Part shown: positions 21,355-33,721 of the stretch, piece after piece
Layout: the number at the start of each line of letters is the position of its first letter
Numbering within the stretch: position 1 is the stretch's first letter
Source of the DNA: a virus
Length of the DNA stretch: 42,235 nucleotides
Strand: one strand, 5' to 3'
Virus record (IMG/VR): IMGVR_UViG_3300020215_000089
Coordinates: 1 to 42,235 of that record
Program-made: the position numbers and the translations under genes
The notes under the pieces: model-generated
Told to the model about the DNA's origin: nothing
What the model saw: only the letters and a program-made list of their open reading frames with translations
Database searches by the model: none

Positions 21355-21384
21355 TCATCCTCCCTTTGCGGATGGCGTCAAAGC

Positions 21385-21492
21385 GGCCGTGCGATGGGAA
21401 GGGATTCGAACCCTCAACTGGCTTCCCCCCTGGTATTCCTCCAGGGCGCACCATTTCTGGAACGGGGAGTGCATCCGGGCGTCATCGCACGG
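21385..21492 (-). ncRNA. tRNA-like structured element (consensus T-arm closed by an 11-bp helix); identity unknown
   Basis: Minus strand reads GCCGTGCGATG...GAGGG-TTCGAAT-CCCTT-CC-CATCGCACGGC. Inside are a CCA-GAAA-TGG tetraloop hairpin and a CCTGG-AGGAATA-CCAGG hairpin. The element overlaps the doubtful ORF 21355..21771. Confidence 0.3.
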
Positions 21493-21690
21493 CTTTACTG
21501 CTTCGCCAATGGCGCGTCCTAGGAAGCCAAAGGCGACATCTGAGAGCATGGGCGGGTCCTGCCCCCGCTCGGGCTGCTCTGTGAGCCCACTTGCTGGCGA
21601 AGCCGGGCATGGTTTCCCCCGTCGGGTACTTTGTCCCCTCGCCGCTTCAGCAGTACGCGCGTCATCTCGCCGCGCTGCCATGCTCAAAAC

Positions 21691-21762
21691 AGGAGCCCCG
21701 CCGGACTCGCACCGGCTATCATCCCTTTGTATCGGGGTCGCTCGATTCTTTGCGTTGGGGCT
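21691..21762 (-). ncRNA. 72-nt degenerate tRNA-like element
   Basis: Minus strand has a GAGCCCC/GGGGCTC 7-bp acceptor-like helix and a GCCGG-TGCGAGT-CCGGC T-arm-like hairpin directly before the 3' strand. The D and anticodon arms are poor. Confidence 0.25.
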
Positions 21763-21767
21763 CGAAA

Positions 21768-21920
21768 TCATTCCGGCAGCACTTCCCGGACGCTGTCTAT
21801 AACGTCCTGCTGGGCCAGGGGCTTGCTTAGGTCGTAGCCGGACAGGTCCAGGGACAAACGAACGTCGCCATTAGGCGCAACGACAAGCAGCTTCCAGCCC
21901 GTGAACTTGAGCGGCTTCAT
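21768..21920 (-). CDS. Hypothetical small protein
   Basis: Trimmed to the ATG at 21920 (MKPLKFTGWKLLVVAPNG...), which forms an ATGA overlap. Confidence 0.45.
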   Translation of the reverse strand: MKPLKFTGWKLLVVAPNGDVRLSLDLSGYDLSKPLAQQDVIDSVREVLPE

Positions 21921-25865: not shown

Positions 25866-26300
25866 TTATTTTTTTGCCGACTCAAAACACCGCATACACC
25901 AGGCGCTTAATGCGCCATTCGGATACTTCACGATCTTCAAATTAGCCGTCCCTTCCCCGCATTTCCGGCAATGCGCCCCGCACGTCGAACAGACCCGGGC
26001 ATTTCCTTGAAGCCTGTACGTCCTGCACAGCGGGCAGAGATTCCCCTCGTCTTTCCCTTTGTCGCCATTAACCCGCTCCCAATACCTGACACAAGCCCGC
26101 CAGTCCTGAACCTTCGTCTTTCCCCTAACCCAGCCGTTGGCCGTGTAGTGGTCAACGAATCTGGCGGCATCAATCCCATTCCTGCGTTCCTCACAGTACG
26201 CCCTAACCTCGTCAACTGACGGCGGTACGAACCGCTTGCTCTGCTGCGGAGTCGGGTAGAACCGACACCCGCAGTCCGGGCACTCTGTCAGTCCGGTCAT
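25866..26300 (-). CDS. Cys-rich protein, possibly replication-associated
   Basis: 144 aa. Zinc-ribbon-like CPDCGC and CSTCGAHCRKC clusters flank PPSVDEVRAYCEERRNGIDAARFVDHYTANGWVRGKTKVQDWRACVRYWE, a motif type seen in phage replication-organiser proteins. Confidence 0.4.
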   Translation of the reverse strand: MTGLTECPDCGCRFYPTPQQSKRFVPPSVDEVRAYCEERRNGIDAARFVDHYTANGWVRGKTKVQDWRACVRYWERVNGDKGKDEGNLCPLCRTYRLQGNARVCSTCGAHCRKCGEGTANLKIVKYPNGALSAWCMRCFESAKK

Positions 26301-26669
26301 TGGTGTAACGTCCTCCTGATGTCAAAAGAGCGACTTTCCGGTAGAGGTGAGTGCATTTTTCACCCATACCGAACGCTACTGGACGCCGAGAACGCCTGTT
26401 TACGCTTGCGCGTTGCTGCCGGACTAAGCCTGAACCGTGGTCTGTTCGCTCACGGTTTGATCTTTTCTCCGGGTTTTTATCGTCGAGGCAGCTTGGGTAT
26501 TCTCATCTACCCATTCCCGATTTACTCTCACCCCTACCCTCCCGGGCGCAGTCGCCGCGTTGCCGGGCTCGAAATTGTGCCTAGCCCCAGCCGGCGGGGG
26601 GCAGGACTTTACGCCATATACCTGGCGCTGGTCGAAGCCGACATCTGCGAGCCATTGGCTCAAACAGTA

Positions 26670-26766
26670 GTCCGCGCCAGGAGTCGAACCCGGCTTCTTC
26701 CCGGTATGGCCCCCGTCTCCGCGACGGACCTCTAGCCGGGATGCTCTAACCGATGAGCTAACGGAC
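26670..26766 (-). tRNA. tRNA-like gene with ~26-nt insertion in the anticodon loop; specificity undetermined
   Basis: Minus strand shows GTCCGTT, TAGCTCATCGGTTAGAGCA (canonical D-arm), TCCCGG, a 31-nt insert containing a CCGTC-GCGGA-GACGG hairpin, CCGGGA, AGAAG, CCGGG-TTCGACT-CCTGG (canonical T-arm), and CGCGGAC. The acceptor stem has one mismatch. Confidence 0.45.
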
Positions 26767-26773
26767 GGGGTCA

Positions 26774-27052
26774 TTACGGAGCCAGCCGATACCCGAATCC
26801 GTTTACCGTCTCAATGACCGGAACGCGCAGCTTGCGGCGAATCCGGGAGACGTGCTGGGCAATAGTCCGCGAGTCGGGAGACGCGGGATCGTCGCCATAA
26901 ACCTCTGTATTGATCGCGGCCAGGGAGGCGATGCCGTCGTAGCTGGCGATGACCCGCAAAACGTCGAACTCCTTGCGACCCAAGTGAACGCGCTTACCCT
27001 TAACGAACACTTCCCTCCGCTTCTCGTTGATGGTCAGGACCGGCTTTTTCAT
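26774..27052 (-). CDS. Winged-helix DNA-binding protein (OmpR/PhoB C-terminal type, stand-alone)
   Basis: VHLGRKEFDVLRVIAS...RTIAQHVSRIRRKLRVPVIETVNGFGYRLAP matches the Trans_reg_C pattern. Confidence 0.75.
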   Translation of the reverse strand: MKKPVLTINEKRREVFVKGKRVHLGRKEFDVLRVIASYDGIASLAAINTEVYGDDPASPDSRTIAQHVSRIRRKLRVPVIETVNGFGYRLAP

Positions 27053-27146
27053 GGTGTCTCTCCTGTTGTTTTGCGGAAACGAAACACTCTTGTCACAGTT
27101 TTGTTAACAACCCGGCCGATAAAAAAAGACGTCGCGACGAGTACGA

Positions 27147-27383
27147 CTAGAACGATTCGGCGTACCGCTTGAGCGAGTCCAGAGAGTAGGGGTGGCGGCC
27201 GCGCGGCATCTGCTTTAGAGCGATTCCCTTGGCGCGATAGCGGCACGCCCTAACACTCAGGGCGCTCGGGTCCGCCTTGAACTTGCGGGCAACGTCTGAC
27301 ACCGTGGCCGACGTCTGCCACGTCTTAATGAACTCGCGCGGGTCAATCTCGATTTTTTTCACTTTACCTGCTCCTGTTGGCAT
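27147..27383 (-). CDS. Small HTH-like protein
   Basis: 78-aa ORF with TWQTSATVSDVARKFKADPSALSVRACRYR. Confidence 0.45.
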   Translation of the reverse strand: MPTGAGKVKKIEIDPREFIKTWQTSATVSDVARKFKADPSALSVRACRYRAKGIALKQMPRGRHPYSLDSLKRYAESF

Positions 27384-27735
27384 TCATGTTTCCGTAAATG
27401 CGGTTTTTGATGCTTTGGTGAGTCACAGACAGTCCGTCCCAAAGACGTCTAAGGTGGCGCGTCTCGGCCTTAACCACCTTCTTTCGCTCGTCAGCCGTAA
27501 GATCCTCGTGCTTCTCACGGGCGACAAAGACGGCCTGGGCCTCGGCCTGGGATAGGTAGCTCTCACAGTCAGCCAGGAGACGGCCGGCGTCGTCTGCCGA
27601 CTGGATAGCCGCGTCAAGGTCCTGGTGCCGCCCCTCGGGGCTGTCAGGAAGTGGCGAGCGGGCGTAAGCCTCAAGCTCTGCCCGGCGCTCAGCCGTGGAC
27701 TCAAGCCATTGCTCTAAGGTCAGCTCGCCGGTCAT
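27364..27735 (-). CDS. Hypothetical protein
   Basis: Trimmed to the ATG at 27735 (MTGELTLEQWL...), which forms an ATGA overlap. Confidence 0.55.
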   Translation of the reverse strand: MTGELTLEQWLESTAERRAELEAYARSPLPDSPEGRHQDLDAAIQSADDAGRLLADCESYLSQAEAQAVFVAREKHEDLTADERKKVVKAETRHLRRLWDGLSVTHQSIKNRIYGNMNANRSR

Positions 27736-28467: not shown

Positions 28468-29232
28468 CTAGAACGGGACAGATTCCAGGTCCTCCACGGG
28501 CGGCTCGACCTCTTCCGTCGTCTTGACCGGCGCGTCCTCGACGATCTTGCCGATGTTCTTGAAGCGCCCGTCCTTGCTCGGGCTCCAGGTCAACTTGACG
28601 TACTTGCCCTCGGCCTTAGCCTTGCCCAGGATCACTTGGTGGGCCTCGTCAAAAGAGGACGCGAAAGACCCATCCGGCAGCTTAACGGAGATGCACAGTC
28701 CACCCTTAGACGTCGGCTTGGCCGTCACGATGGACGGGATGAAGCGGACAACCTGCGGATCGGAGCCAGAAATGGCCCCATTGAACACCTTAGCCGCCGT
28801 CTGCATGGTCTGAGACCTCGGGGCTTCATGGTGGGTAGCCGCGTTTGCGTCGTCGTCCTCGGTCGACAGCCCAAGGATTGCCGCGATGGCATAGCGCCGC
28901 GAGTAGGTGACGCTGGAGGCCACCTTCTGAGGGTTTGACGTGTCCTCAATCAGCGGATAGTCGAAGCTCTCCGAGTGTCCCCCAACGTGGTAGAGCGTCG
29001 TCCGCAGGTAGTTCTTTCCGTTGAGCTGGACGCCCCCCTGGAGGATGGCAAAGCCATTCTCCGTCAGGATTCCCCGCACCGACTCCCACACCGCGCCCAG
29101 GGTCGCGTACTTGCTCCCGAAGTGCGGATTAGAGGCGTCTTTCTTCACGGGCTCCAGGACGCCCTGGACCTTATTGAACGCCTTGAGAAACGCGATCTTC
29201 GGATCGTCTGACGTCTCGGTTTTCGTCGCCAT
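28468..29232 (-). CDS. erf: ERF-family single-strand annealing recombinase
   Basis: NPHFGSKYATLGAVWESVRGILTENGF...SSVTYSRRYAIAAILGLSTEDDDANAA matches the ERF signature. The C-terminus ends in EDLESVPF. Confidence 0.85.
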   Translation of the reverse strand: MATKTETSDDPKIAFLKAFNKVQGVLEPVKKDASNPHFGSKYATLGAVWESVRGILTENGFAILQGGVQLNGKNYLRTTLYHVGGHSESFDYPLIEDTSNPQKVASSVTYSRRYAIAAILGLSTEDDDANAATHHEAPRSQTMQTAAKVFNGAISGSDPQVVRFIPSIVTAKPTSKGGLCISVKLPDGSFASSFDEAHQVILGKAKAEGKYVKLTWSPSKDGRFKNIGKIVEDAPVKTTEEVEPPVEDLESVPF

Positions 29233-29240
29233 AGCTCCCC

Positions 29241-29453
29241 CTATCTGTCGTTAATTGCGTCCCAAATCGCCTCAGCCTCGGCCATTCTGTCGGCCGCGTC
29301 CAACTCGGAACACACGCAAAGCGTCGTGATTCGCTCGCTATCGAACATCGGGCACATGCGGTTGTGTTCCGACTCGACCGGCTCCAAGAGACGGTCCAGG
29401 CAGTCCCGAATCACTTGGGCGTTACGGTCTGCAATAGCTGATGGGCCTGGCAT
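29241..29453 (-). CDS. Hypothetical small protein
   Basis: 70-aa ORF. Confidence 0.5.
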   Translation of the reverse strand: MPGPSAIADRNAQVIRDCLDRLLEPVESEHNRMCPMFDSERITTLCVCSELDAADRMAEAEAIWDAINDR

Positions 29454-29641
29454 AGCTTGGACTCCCCCTTCTCAGGAATGACGCACCCACACTTAAAGGG
29501 CGCGTTTGAATCGGTAAGCTCAAAGGAAAGGAACTGAGGTTGAGCCGCCGCCTGGGCAATCGTATAGAGGGCTGACACCAGGTCGTAATTGCCCGACAGC
29601 TCCCGGCCATCGGTTAGACGAACGGTCACGCGATAGCTCAT
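29411..29641 (-). CDS. Hypothetical small protein
   Basis: Trimmed to the ATG at 29641 (MSYRVTVRLTDGREL...), which forms an ATGA overlap. Confidence 0.5.
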   Translation of the reverse strand: MSYRVTVRLTDGRELSGNYDLVSALYTIAQAAAQPQFLSFELTDSNAPFKCGCVIPEKGESKLCQAHQLLQTVTPK

Positions 29642-31693: not shown

Positions 31694-32710
31694 GTGCCAG
31701 GACTCATTAAACGCGGGAAGGTCTGGTACTCGGACATCCGCCTCAACGGGCGGCGGGTCCGCAAGCCCCTAAGCACTGATAAGGTCGTCGCCCAGCAGAA
31801 GCTCCGGGACCTATCCGACGAGCGCCATTCCGTGAAATACGGGGCGGGCGGGGACATGCGCTGGGGGCCGTTCAAAGAGAAATACCTAGCCTTCTGTCTC
31901 GTCGATAAAAAACCATTTACCGTCGTACGCACGAAGGTCTCCCTAGGTCATTACGAAAAGTTCGCCAAGCCAAAGACCCTCTCGGACGTGACCCCGGAAA
32001 CCCTGGAGCAGTTTAAGGGCCACAGAAAGGCGCAGGGGATTGGGAATGCCACGATAAACGTAGACGTGAAGAAGGTAAAAGCCCTCATGCGCCGGGCGAT
32101 GCTCTGGGGTTATATCGACAAGTGGAACGGCGCGGCGGTTAAGGAACTGCGGGAGACGCGCAACCGGGAGAGATTCTACACGGTCGAGGAACTAAAACGA
32201 CTCCTCGACGTTTGCCGGGCCAAGAAATACGGCTTTTACCAGTGGGAGACGGTCTGCCTGCTGGCCGCCCAGGCGGGGCTGCGAAGATCCGAAATCTACC
32301 ACCTTGCCTGGAAGGACATCGACCTGGAGTCCGGGATGCTGCACGTCTCCTCAAAAGAGGGCTGGGACCCCAAGACCGACAAGTCCAGCCGGCACATCCC
32401 GATTGCCAAAGACCTCGCCAAGCATCTCAAGGGCCTGAAGCGATCAACCCCATGGGTCATTGGCGAGCGCCCGTCCAAGTCCGTCATGTCCGCCTACTTC
32501 CAGAAAATCAGCCGCAAGGCCAGGCTAGACGGGAACCTCCACACCCTGCGCCACACCTTCGGAAGCCACCTAGCCCAAGCCGGCGTCCCCCTTCACACCA
32601 TCGCCAAGCTAATGGGGCACTCGACGACGCGCACGACGGAACTCTACGCCCACCTAGCCCCCAAGGACCTCAAGTCCGCAATCAGCAGGCTTCCCGGAAT
32701 CGGCCTTTAA
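31694..32710 (+). CDS. int: Tyrosine integrase
   Basis: 338 aa with a GTG start. The catalytic region is RRSEI...HTLRHTFGSHLAQAGVPLHTIAKLMGHSTTRTTELYAHL. Confidence 0.9.
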   Translation: MPGLIKRGKVWYSDIRLNGRRVRKPLSTDKVVAQQKLRDLSDERHSVKYGAGGDMRWGPFKEKYLAFCLVDKKPFTVVRTKVSLGHYEKFAKPKTLSDVTPETLEQFKGHRKAQGIGNATINVDVKKVKALMRRAMLWGYIDKWNGAAVKELRETRNRERFYTVEELKRLLDVCRAKKYGFYQWETVCLLAAQAGLRRSEIYHLAWKDIDLESGMLHVSSKEGWDPKTDKSSRHIPIAKDLAKHLKGLKRSTPWVIGERPSKSVMSAYFQKISRKARLDGNLHTLRHTFGSHLAQAGVPLHTIAKLMGHSTTRTTELYAHLAPKDLKSAISRLPGIGL

Positions 32711-32917: not shown

Positions 32918-33721
32918 CTAGCGGATCATAAACCGGGACTGGCCCTCGTAGCGACCGAAGCGTCCTGTAGCCCACTTCCCGCAATCTGTACATTGATACC
33001 GCTGGCGCTTGCCGGTGGACAGGAAGATAAAGCCCCGGCATTGAAGATTGGCGCTCTTGCAGGCCGGGCAGGTAAATGAGGCTTTGGACATGGGGTTTAG
33101 GTTGGGATGGCCAGTCATCCAGGGCCTTAGTTTGAGATAGACCCGCTCCAGGAGCCCCACGTCCCCAAGGTTGTATTTCTTCATCTGAGCCCAGGACTCG
33201 GGGTCGCCATTGAGACATCCGATCCACATATCTATTCCCGGATGCCTAACCTTCCGGCCGACCCCTAGAAATTCTCCAAGGTCGTCTAGTTTGTTGGAGT
33301 TAAAATCGAAGGCCGCGCGGGCCGCTTTGAGGGTATCGACCCGTTTGTGTGGCGGGGGCGGGGTCAGGCCGTGCTTGATAAAGTCGGTGTTGGACCGCTT
33401 GTCGTCAAAATCAACGACGTTATGCCCGACGGTTATGTCCGCCTGGCAAAACAGGGCATGGAGGGCCTTGATTAGCTCCCGGTTGTTCTCTTTGTCCTTG
33501 GCGTAGCCCTTGAAGTCTGGGAGGGCTAGGACGTGCCCCTCGGCTTCACCCAGCCACTTCCAGGCAAAGGAGATGATCTGCCGATGCTTGATGACTCGGA
33601 TGACGTCCTGTTGCCAGACGCCCCAGGTGTAAGCGATGTTTGGGCTCGTCTCTAGGTCGTAGAGGAGGATTCTTGCAGCAGTTTCCGTCGCGTCGGGCGA
33701 CTTCGTTTGATTTGCTGGCAC
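32918..33721 (-). CDS. DEDD 3'-5' exonuclease with C-terminal zinc ribbon
   Basis: Motifs are ILLYDLETSP (Exo I), GHNVVDFD (Exo II) and YNLGDVGLLERVY (Exo III), plus CPAC...CTDC. The GTG start follows AGGAGG. Confidence 0.8.
   Translation of the reverse strand: MPANQTKSPDATETAARILLYDLETSPNIAYTWGVWQQDVIRVIKHRQIISFAWKWLGEAEGHVLALPDFKGYAKDKENNRELIKALHALFCQADITVGHNVVDFDDKRSNTDFIKHGLTPPPPHKRVDTLKAARAAFDFNSNKLDDLGEFLGVGRKVRHPGIDMWIGCLNGDPESWAQMKKYNLGDVGLLERVYLKLRPWMTGHPNLNPMSKASFTCPACKSANLQCRGFIFLSTGKRQRYQCTDCGKWATGRFGRYEGQSRFMIR

Follow-up and report, generated by a model that had tools for sequence, protein, structure and literature searches.

A tRNA-like element, most likely non-decoding, in the early leftward operon of a temperate phage

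What is a sequence with the D and T arms of a tRNA, and with a hairpin where its anticodon loop should be, doing among the early genes of a phage? The question is raised by a 98-nt element on the minus strand of a short-tailed, temperate phage, known from an IMG/VR record whose 42,235 nt were analysed in full (the window). A first-pass annotation had described a minus-strand tRNA-like gene with canonical D and T arms, and had noted that 31 nt with a hairpin of their own replace the 7-nt anticodon loop; the sequence reads as described on both counts. What is established is that the element descends from a tRNA, how it is built, that it has no usable anticodon loop and that it is co-oriented with the early leftward operon in which it lies. 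The element is most likely non-decoding, and is either the remains of a tRNA gene or a signal at which tRNA-processing enzymes would cut.

Anatomy and ancestry of the element

In the element the D and T arms are canonical, the anticodon arm is extended and the acceptor comprises 6 bp, with U as the discriminator; its parts are as follows.

26669..26766, minus strand: the whole tRNA-like element, 98 nt (Rfam tRNA; ARAGORN with introns allowed; cloverleaf of minimum free energy, MFE)
26766-26761, minus strand: acceptor 5′ strand, GUCCGU
26760-26759, minus strand: U8 and A9
26758-26743, minus strand: D stem and loop, GCUC-AUCGGUUA-GAGC
26742, minus strand: A26
26741-26736 and 26704-26699, minus strand: anticodon stem, UCCCGG/CCGGGA
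26735-26705, minus strand: loop region, 31 nt, with the hairpin CCGUC-GCGGA-GACGG at 26727-26713
26709..26733, minus strand: 25-nt insert, between U33 (26734) and CAUA (26708-26705)
26698-26694, minus strand: variable region, AGAAG
26677..26693, minus strand: T arm, CCGGG-UUCGACU-CCUGG, with the motif GGUUCGACUCC at 26691-26681
26676, minus strand: C66
26675-26670, minus strand: acceptor 3′ strand, GCGGAC
26669, minus strand: discriminator U, CCA not being encoded

The Rfam tRNA model (RF00005) aligned with the element from end to end (model positions 1-71) at 26.0 bits, short of the gathering score of 29, with 31-33 nt in place of the 7-nt anticodon loop. The E-value that is reported for Rfam is multiplied by 4227 families, and the 0.12 obtained for 19 kb corresponds to a single-family value of ~6e-5 over the 42-kb window, which places the match far above chance. 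ARAGORN, which had been proposed as a check, called no tRNA in the window with default settings, i.e., the phage has no intact tRNA gene by that measure; with introns allowed, its sole call in the window was the element, read as a tRNA-Ser(AGA) with a 24-nt intron at 37/38. The same setting gave three calls in 60 dinucleotide-shuffled copies of the genome, used as a false-call check, and one intron call in 535 kb of related loci. A tmRNA was rejected, since both the ARAGORN tmRNA search and Rfam gave no match.

All of the tRNA invariants (U8, A14, G18, G19, A21, G53, T54, T55, C56, A58 and C61) are kept, and pairing is complete in the D stem (4/4) and the T stem (5/5), with 5-6 bp in the anticodon stem and 6 bp in the acceptor. 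Position 7 of the acceptor is deleted in the Rfam alignment; G48 and C66 are able to lengthen the T stem, so that the stack of acceptor and T stem still amounts to 6 + 6 = 12 bp. The hairpin of the insert lengthens the anticodon stem to a bulged helix of ~16 bp, predicted as 6 bp, a 1-nt bulge, 2 bp, a 2x1 internal loop, 3 bp, a 2-nt bulge, 5 bp and a pentaloop. The lower half has thus been turned into a long irregular helix, because the 25-nt hairpin stands between U33 and the old anticodon, and for this reason the element is most likely unable to decode. When folded alone, a 102-nt fragment adopts the cloverleaf with the long anticodon arm (MFE -46.7 kcal/mol, z -2.2). With 34 nt of additional upstream sequence the predicted MFE structure is an alternative fold and not the cloverleaf, the leader CCCCGUC pairing with GACGGGG of the insert. 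The folding z-scores are modest throughout (-1.2 to -2.2).

The ancestry was followed by a DNA-pattern scan of bacterial genome contigs for the D arm GCUCAUCGGUUAGAGC in combination with the T loop of the element. The matches were 119 tRNA genes, all of normal length and 114 of them with the loop CUCAUAA. CU and CAUA, remnants that match this loop, flank the insert in the element, and CAUA (26708-26705) resembles an old anticodon followed by A37. Since this D arm and T loop are almost confined to CAU tRNAs, and the remnants lie on the two sides of the insert, the element is probably, as judged from its sequence, the descendant of a CAU-anticodon tRNA gene of the tRNA-Met or tRNA-Ile2 type.

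The operon and two further tRNA-like modules

The features that surround the element, and those to which it can be compared within the window, are the following.

26774..27052, minus strand: winged-helix gene, stand-alone OmpR-type, 92 aa (Pfam Trans_reg_C, E 3.7e-14)
26424..26774, minus strand: 116-aa ORF that overlaps the element, called by public gene callers
26301..26668, minus strand: 368-nt interval from the element to the 144-aa gene, ending in the AGGAGG ribosome-binding site of that gene
25866..26300, minus strand: 144-aa gene downstream of the element (phrog_15768)
21693..21763, minus strand: second tRNA-shaped module, 71 nt, starting 4 nt past the stop codon of a 50-aa gene
21391..21488, minus strand: third tRNA-like module, with a long closing stem and the T arm GAGGG-UUCGAAU-CCCUU
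31694..32710: tyrosine integrase gene, 5 kb from the element

The stop codon of the winged-helix gene lies 7 nt ahead of G1 (26766) of the element, and a search with its protein returned only the protein itself. Downstream, the 144-aa protein has an N-terminal domain that is common to phage replication-organiser-type proteins as well as Cys-rich motifs, and its homologues bear PF13730, PF09681 or PF19808; its gene is followed by a conserved pair of genes for 230 and 146 aa, in a module that was found in 80 loci. The 368-nt interval between them is modestly structured on the minus strand (z -2.2), and a Rfam match, a sigma-70-like promoter, a terminator and direct repeats were all sought in it and not found. 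Neither promoter-like nor terminator-like sites were found from the winged-helix gene to the 144-aa gene, nor direct or operator-like repeats in 26280-26800, and the search for antisense targets of the element in the rest of the genome gave a longest complementarity of 11 nt, which is the chance level.

The second and third modules are more degenerate than the element at 26.7 kb, and both are found in a different “non-coding” interval of this operon. The second has a perfect 7-bp acceptor and a perfect 5-bp T stem with degenerate D, T and anticodon loops, and over its T arm, the 3′ strand of the acceptor and the trailer it matches the 26.7-kb element at 42 of 54 positions; the third gave a weak match to the Rfam tRNA-Sec model (17.2 bits). 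A scan of the window for T-arm hairpins found three, compared with a mean of 1.0 in shuffled sequence; each of them falls within one of the two “non-coding” intervals, on the strand that is transcribed. Two of the three tRNA-like modules start 4-7 nt beyond a stop codon. Aligned globally, the two intervals scored only slightly better than shuffled sequence (z about 2), so that their homology as cassettes is not clear.

Cutting signal, relic or another origin

RNase P, RNase Z and the CCA-adding enzyme recognise their substrates by the upper half of the tRNA. This half is preserved in the element, as the 12-bp stack of acceptor and T stem and the elbow of D loop and T loop. We tentatively propose, with somewhat less than even confidence, that the element derives from a tRNA(CAU), is specific to this lineage and does not decode, and is, within the early transcript, a candidate substrate of RNase P and RNase Z. 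It would be transcribed as part of the early leftward polycistronic RNA and, as its upper half is what these enzymes recognise, the transcript should be cut at the borders of the element, i.e., at G1 (26766), 7 nt past the stop of the winged-helix gene, and a second time after U73 (26669). Such cuts would leave the regulator and the replication genes on separate mRNAs and set free an RNA of ~98 nt. The transcription through the element, its cleavage by RNase P and RNase Z and any selective value of that cleavage are inferred. A broader version of this proposal, which our analysis leaves doubtful, is that the phage has made former tRNA genes into “punctuation marks”, with three modules placed after stop codons in the early operon. 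In that case the cuts by host RNase P and RNase Z would fix the ends and the stabilities of the regulator and replication mRNAs, and the best-preserved module would also be freed as a stable, anticodon-less mimic of a tRNA. A literature search did not find a description of tRNA-derived mRNA punctuation in phages.

The main alternative, which we regard as rather unlikely, is that the element is a neutral relic, i.e., a phage tRNA(CAU) gene that lost its function recently, when a palindrome of 25 nt was inserted and 1 nt of the acceptor was deleted, any cutting by RNase P being incidental. This would agree with the Rfam score under the threshold, the unusable anticodon loop and a phage that has no intact tRNA gene, and the two more degenerate modules of the same phage resemble later stages of decay. 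It would also agree with the absence of the element from every relative examined. Across IMG/VR, the JGI metagenomes, GenBank phages and plasmids, homologues were found only among copies that are at least 99.8% identical. The phage is present in the samples SRR7003765, SRR7003766, ERZ27257312, ERZ27257313 and JGI 3300020202. An exact search of IMG/VR with a 22-mer of T arm and acceptor found none, a pattern of D arm, gap and T loop found no related element in IMG/VR or the JGI metagenomes (the five matches in the latter are all unrelated tRNAs), and blastn against GenBank phages and plasmids yielded nothing beyond 19-27-nt pieces of tRNA arms. Searches for related loci by the ERF recombinase and the winged-helix protein found none, none of the 80 loci with the 230-aa neighbouring gene has a related element, no tRNA-like sequence accompanies the closest homologue of the 144-aa gene (locus L008), and the only tRNA of locus L002 is an ordinary tRNA-Ala at the end of the contig. 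A literature search for the Methylosinus-1 RNA returned nothing.

Against decay stands the survival of all upper-half invariants and of pairing in every stem, although the intact invariants could equally reflect recent inactivation. The insert prolongs the anticodon helix rather than breaking it. All three modules lie on the transcribed strand, and two of them sit right next to stop codons. Where the modules look older, the loops have drifted but the acceptor and T stems still pair perfectly, which fits selection for a shape that RNase P and RNase Z recognise better than it fits neutral decay. The sole variant in the T arm (26679, U63 to C, in loci L005 and L006) converts the G51-U63 wobble to a G-C pair, and is one of only two SNPs across 3.7 kb of the variant contig; as it is also synonymous in the overlapping 116-aa ORF, it does not discriminate. 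A decayed tRNA and a tRNA-derived regulatory or processing RNA had both been among the readings offered by the first-pass annotation, and these two are viable and now lead the others.

That annotation had further suggested a tRNA that escapes anticodon nucleases. As a decoding tRNA this is unlikely, because a usable anticodon loop is absent, and the idea survives only for a non-decoding decoy, which we consider improbable. Such a mimic would act as a sponge for a tRNA-binding factor of the host, e.g., a tRNA-cleaving defence nuclease or a modification enzyme. The intact elbow and acceptor minihelix, the burial of the anticodon in a helix and the early-expressed position in the genome would suit this role; the searches, in contrast, revealed neither a gene that might act as its partner nor a defence context, and the element is not conserved in other phages and has no complementarity to the rest of the genome above chance.

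A small intron-like insertion, another of the earlier suggestions, has lost ground. On that reading, to which we give little credence, the element would be a functional tRNA with a short, protein-spliced intron like the “enigmatic” ones published for tRNAs of Lak megaphages (PMC6784885), and would decode once the intron is removed. ARAGORN does place a 24-nt intron at the canonical 37/38 site, in a parse (26729-26706) that differs from the one given above, and a pattern of the D-arm type retrieved 36 IMG/VR stretches, in several of which (L089 and L124) deletion of the insert leaves a clean Lys loop. Yet only one excision leaves U33 together with a purine at 37, and its anticodon is AGA (Ser) in a tRNA whose body is class I and whose D arm is of the CAU type; excision around CAU leaves a loop of 6 or 8 nt, and position 7 of the acceptor is absent. 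Moreover, the predicted fold has no bulge-helix-bulge (no 3-nt bulges 4 bp apart), and candidates for RNA ligase, RtcB or a splicing endonuclease were not seen among the annotated phage genes. A group I intron was rejected in view of the length of the insert, 24-33 nt vs. the more than 200 nt of introns with a P1-P9 core, and of the absence of a Rfam intron match.

The stretch downstream had been said to contain no credible CDS. This holds in substance, but the stretch is not free of ORFs, as the 116-aa frame (26774..26424) runs through it. That this ORF is real, and that the tRNA likeness is carried inside a gene, is given as little credence as the spliced tRNA. Its ATG overlaps the upstream stop (TAATG), the frame is open for 116 codons and was called by gene callers, the single SNP is synonymous in it, and there is a parallel in a 138-aa ORF (21771..21355) that exactly fills the second non-coding interval. 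Nevertheless, among 5.8 billion proteins the 116-aa sequence matched only itself, and neither Pfam nor PHROG has a family for it. The GC contents at codon positions 1, 2 and 3 are flat (0.61/0.56/0.63) and the codon score (-0.06) is below that of most neighbouring genes. Chance ORFs are plentiful (56 of the 110 ORFs of at least 100 aa in the window are nested inside longer ones), the ATG is a by-product of the tandem stop TAA-TGA, and a match to the tRNA model at an E-value of ~6e-5 would be unexpected in a random gene. On sequence grounds, the ORF is probably spurious.

Tyrosine integrases often target tRNA genes, and the phage has one. That the element is what remains of an attachment site (attP or a hybrid att), left when the phage integrated into a tRNA gene of its host, was also raised before. 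This origin is nonetheless unsupported and highly improbable, as the integrase is 5 kb away with more than 10 genes between, integration here would interrupt the early operon, the tRNA is represented by its two halves and not by the 3′ part alone, and searches found no repeat copy of either half elsewhere in the window, no T-arm hairpin near the integrase and no bacterial or plasmid tRNA that matches the acceptor or anticodon stems.

If the proposed processing signals are real, phages recycle tRNA genes as mRNA punctuation, a bacteriophage counterpart of the tRNA punctuation and t-elements of mitochondria, which would add a post-transcriptional layer to the control of the early operon; annotators would then have cause to look for tRNA shapes below threshold in the “empty” intervals of phage genomes. 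If the element is instead a relic, it is a snapshot of the death of a phage tRNA gene, in which an insertion in the anticodon loop and a 1-nt deletion in the acceptor have left the upper half untouched, and a warning that gene callers turn such relics into hypothetical proteins, the 116-aa ORF being present in public protein sets. On either reading, the element opens no long-standing question.

Comparison with known systems

The bacterial tRNA-Met and tRNA-Ile2 (CAU) share with the element an identical 16-nt D arm, A26, the same type of T loop and the CU...CAUA remnants, whereas the element has in addition a 25-nt insert, a 6-bp acceptor, a discriminator U in place of A, no encoded CCA, and acceptor and anticodon stems of unrelated sequence. 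The short “enigmatic” introns of Lak megaphage tRNA genes (PMC6784885), and the IMG/VR loci L089, L097 and L124, are similar in that an otherwise good phage tRNA gene has its anticodon loop interrupted by a short insert (20-40 nt) that forms a hairpin. In these, removal of the insert restores a canonical 7-nt loop, which is not the case in the 26.7-kb element, where the acceptor stem is damaged as well and the genome is that of a 42-kb temperate phage without other tRNA genes.

With regard to the predicted cutting, the eukaryotic mascRNA and menRNA provide a parallel, in that a tRNA-like structure ends the upstream RNA and is processed by RNase P and RNase Z; the element is not a mascRNA, as its score with that Rfam model is 14 bits vs. 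a threshold of 42.5. Closer to phages, bacterial RNase P cuts operon mRNAs and the precursor of the P1/P7 C4 RNA (works cited in PMC4919922). The C4 antisense RNA of P1/P7 and the CI RNA of P4 resemble what is predicted here, namely a small structured RNA that a tRNA-processing enzyme excises from a phage operon transcript. Membership of the C4/P4 CI group was rejected, as a Rfam match was absent and complementary targets were not found in the genome.

The t-elements of plant mitochondria, which have a GGTTCRANYCC motif, direct cuts by RNase P and RNase Z at mRNA ends (PMC1920247). The phage element differs from these in that it belongs to a bacteriophage and not to an organelle, in that its cleavage is predicted, and in its fully canonical D arm and the long helical extension of its anticodon arm. 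Like the t-elements, it is a non-canonical cloverleaf with a GGTTCRANYCC T arm, located in a predicted longer transcript next to the end of a coding region, several degenerate copies occur per genome, and it would be expected to serve as a substrate for RNase P at its 5′ side and for RNase Z at its 3′ side.

Anatomy and origin of the tRNA-like element

The first-pass annotation had described a tRNA-like gene with an insertion in its anticodon loop, and its reading of the minus strand at 26766-26669 proved exact when the coordinates were checked. The Rfam tRNA model aligns to the element over its full length with 26.0 bits, just below the 29-bit threshold, with one deletion (position 7) and with 33 nt replacing the 7-nt anticodon loop. 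The reported E-values carry a factor of 4227, the number of families; the 0.12 obtained for 19 kb thus corresponds to ~6e-5 for the tRNA family alone across the whole window. ARAGORN, which the annotation had proposed as a check, made no call at the element in default mode, but with introns allowed the element was its sole call in the window; as background, that mode called 3 sites across 60 shuffled genomes, and in 535 kb of DNA from related phages it made a single call with an intron. The invariant residues U8, A14, G18, G19, A21, G53, T54, T55, C56, A58 and C61 are all kept. The element is real.

In the predicted minimum free energy (MFE) fold of a short fragment, a cloverleaf forms in which the insert prolongs the anticodon arm (6 bp, bulge, 2 bp, internal loop, 3 bp, bulge, 5 bp and a GCGGA loop). 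The folds are context-dependent: folding 26780-26640 gives the cloverleaf as the MFE, folding 26800-26655 does not. The absent acceptor base may be offset by a possible G48-C66 pair, so that the acceptor/T stack would comprise 6+6 = 12 bp, as many as the 7+5 of a normal tRNA.

The exact D arm and T loop of the element were searched for in one genome per bacterial or archaeal species, with spacings from normal to insert-bearing. At least 119 genes were found, all of normal length among the matches listed, and among the latter the anticodon loop was CUCAUAA in 114 of 119 and CUUAUAA in 3 of 119. The best short match of the 5′ part of the element in GenBank phages was an annotated tRNA-Met. The element itself carries CU (26735-26734) directly after the anticodon stem and CAUA (26708-26705) directly before the return strand. 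Given the prevalence of CUCAUAA and these remnants, the simplest history would start from a tRNA-Met or tRNA-Ile2 gene (CAU), into which 25 nt (26733-26709) were inserted between U33 and C34; judged by its sequence, the element is tRNA(CAU)-derived. There are hints that the insert may be of palindromic or duplicative origin. Its 5′ arm GUCCGUC (26723-26729, minus strand) repeats the acceptor 5′ strand GUCCGU (26761-26766), and the leader CCCCGUC (26767-26773) is predicted to pair with the insert GACGGGG (26711-26717), displacing the insert's own hairpin, a pairing that becomes the predicted MFE once more upstream sequence is included.

Excision of the 25 nt leaves a 6-nt loop on a 6-bp stem or an 8-nt loop on the canonical 5-bp stem. 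Of the possible single excisions, the 24-nt intron placed by ARAGORN at 37/38 alone yields U33 and a purine at 37, and its product (anticodon AGA, class I body, CAU-type D arm, discriminator U) is for these features not credible as a bacterial tRNA. No bulge-helix-bulge geometry is present in the predicted fold, a group I intron would be about ten times longer than the insert, and no RNA ligase, RtcB or splicing endonuclease was found among ~50 phage ORFs in the PHROGs or Pfam screen. The element therefore very probably does not act as a decoding tRNA, and the earlier suggestion of a small intron-like element is weakened. It does not qualify as a canonical tRNA, a bulge-helix-bulge-intron tRNA or a group I intron, nor as tmRNA, C4/CI RNA, mascRNA or attP, and the attachment-site origin that had been raised is not supported.

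Genomic setting

The window is a complete IMG/VR virus record of 42,235 bp with direct terminal repeats, in which the following were found:

window, terminase and portal-like proteins (PHROG/Pfam screen)
window, tail proteins (PHROG/Pfam screen)
31694-32710, tyrosine integrase
32918-33721, DNA polymerase exonuclease-subunit-like protein (phrog_403)
window, ERF recombinase
window, NinG-like protein
window, two HNH endonucleases and two DNA methyltransferases
26774-27052, minus strand, stand-alone OmpR-type winged-helix gene (Pfam Trans_reg_C)

This gene content identifies a temperate, bacterial, short-tailed phage. The element is located in the leftward (minus-strand) early region, between the winged-helix gene and a 144-aa gene whose N-terminal domain is also found in replication-organiser proteins of phages. 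Neither a promoter-like nor a terminator-like site was found between the winged-helix gene and the replication genes, so the element should, as far as the sequence indicates, be transcribed inside an early polycistronic RNA. A hairpin followed by a T run at 27131-27147 (minus), between a 78-aa HTH gene and the winged-helix gene, is the only terminator-like site within 26100-27500. The 368 nt downstream of the element (26668-26301) gave no Rfam family, repeats or promoter and have modest structure only.

That this downstream stretch holds no credible CDS, as first annotated, stands with a qualification: a 116-aa ORF (26774-26424) runs through the element and is listed by public gene callers, but is treated here as presumably spurious, since it has no relatives and flat GC. 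Its ATG arises from the two consecutive stop codons (TAA-TGA) that end the upstream gene; among 5.8 billion proteins it found only itself, and Pfam and PHROG gave no match. GC is flat across its codon positions and its codon score lies below that of most neighbours. The window (59% GC) holds 110 ORFs of >=100 aa, 56 of them inside longer ORFs.

Further modules and comparative evidence

Two more tRNA-like modules lie within the interval 21355-21771, which is exactly filled by a 138-aa ORF (21771..21355) with no PHROG match:

21763-21693, minus strand, 71-nt module with a clean cloverleaf MFE (75% of ensemble)
21488-21391, minus strand, third module with a long closing stem, a perfect GGUUCGAAUCC T arm and a weak tRNA-Sec match

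In the 71-nt module the acceptor (7 bp) and T stem (5 bp) are perfectly paired and the loops are degenerate; it resembles the element in T arm, 3′ acceptor strand and trailer (CUGUUUGAGC), with 42/54 positions aligned. The element (26.7 kb) starts 7 nt past the stop codon of the preceding gene, and the 71-nt module (21.7 kb) 4 nt past that of a 50-aa gene. A genome-wide scan for T-arm hairpins returned exactly three, where shuffled sequences gave a mean of 1.0. Each of the three is on the transcribed strand and inside one of the two "non-coding" intervals that hold the element and these modules, intervals that together make up ~1% of the sequence space. Such modules are rare in related phages (2 in 535 kb). 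In another phage contig, L072:982-1054 (+) is a D-arm-less tRNA-like module with a 7-bp acceptor and a GUGGG-UUCGACU-CCCAC T arm, located 75 nt upstream of a homologue of the 230-aa gene. Between the two further modules, 21600-21647 (minus) gives a partial, sequence-rich match to the Rfam Methylosinus-1 RNA (RF03108; 22.4 bits vs a gathering score of 145, model positions 127-174), which may hint at host phylogeny or a larger structured RNA.

The region recurs at 99.8-100% identity in five other contigs. Contig L005, a variant of this phage, has a mosaic ERF gene: in L005:1-870 against 28470-29507 of the window, the C-terminal part of the gene is heavily diverged, with ~80% identity further upstream. 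Outside this block it shows two differences in about 3.5-3.7 kb. The difference at 26679 changes U63 to C, converting the T-stem wobble G51-U63 to G-C. Being synonymous in the 116-aa ORF as well, this change, the only informative SNP in all, does not discriminate. More distant copies were found neither in IMG/VR, JGI metagenomes, GenBank phages and PLSDB plasmids, nor in 80 phage loci with the neighbouring 230-aa and 146-aa gene pair, nor in the one contig whose 144-aa gene is 57% identical. The element thus appears, from these searches, specific to the present phage lineage. In almost every one of the 80 related IMG/VR loci (L009-L088) the 230-aa gene (phrog_4652) lies next to the 146-aa gene (phrog_15946), a conserved pairing, and the family has ~2500 representatives in a 50%-identity library. 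An ordinary tRNA-Ala(AGC) gene at the extreme end of a related IMG/VR contig (L002:113-184, minus) may mark a prophage border.

A candidate processing signal and its known relatives

The features that RNase P, RNase Z and the CCA-adding enzyme recognise are the elbow and the stacked acceptor and T stems rather than the anticodon arm. In the element this upper half is intact, and cleavage would therefore be expected at G1 and after U73. The cut at G1 would define the 3′ end of the winged-helix mRNA, the cut after U73 would create a new 5′ end for the replication-gene RNA, and both together would release a tRNA-like RNA of ~98 nt. Non-tRNA substrates have been reviewed (PMC4919922).

In the two more degenerate modules the loops have drifted, yet the acceptor and T stems are still perfectly paired; this is the main argument that the tRNA shape may be under selection rather than in neutral decay, a weak argument drawn from one genome. 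A neutral relic, i.e., a decayed tRNA, is the less likely but a substantial alternative; the two readings differ only in whether cleavage is of any importance to the phage.

Phage tRNAs with a short insert in the anticodon loop were known before, and "enigmatic" introns were reported in Lak megaphage tRNAs (PMC6784885). A pattern scan of IMG/VR found 36 stretches with 13-43 extra nt between a similar D arm and T loop, a few of them covering two tRNA genes that lie side by side. In phage tRNA genes of L089, L097, L100, L108, L113, L124 and others from IMG/VR and of L248 from JGI, hairpins of 20-41 nt are inserted into the anticodon loop, and L090, L115, L119 and L245-L247 belong to a five-arm type of tRNA-Ile(UAU) that has a second GAU hairpin. 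In L089 and L124 a clean Lys (CUU) loop reappears when the insert is excised, whereas in the element no excision restores the loop and the acceptor stem is damaged too. Degenerate, tRNA-like t-elements of plant mitochondria, located by the motif GGTTCRANYCC, direct cleavage of the proposed kind (PMC1920247), and the element has the structure and position of a t-element-like signal, with cleavage predicted. Rather than forming a new class, the element varies known kinds, the phage pseudo-tRNAs or anticodon-loop-insert tRNAs and the tRNA-like processing signals.
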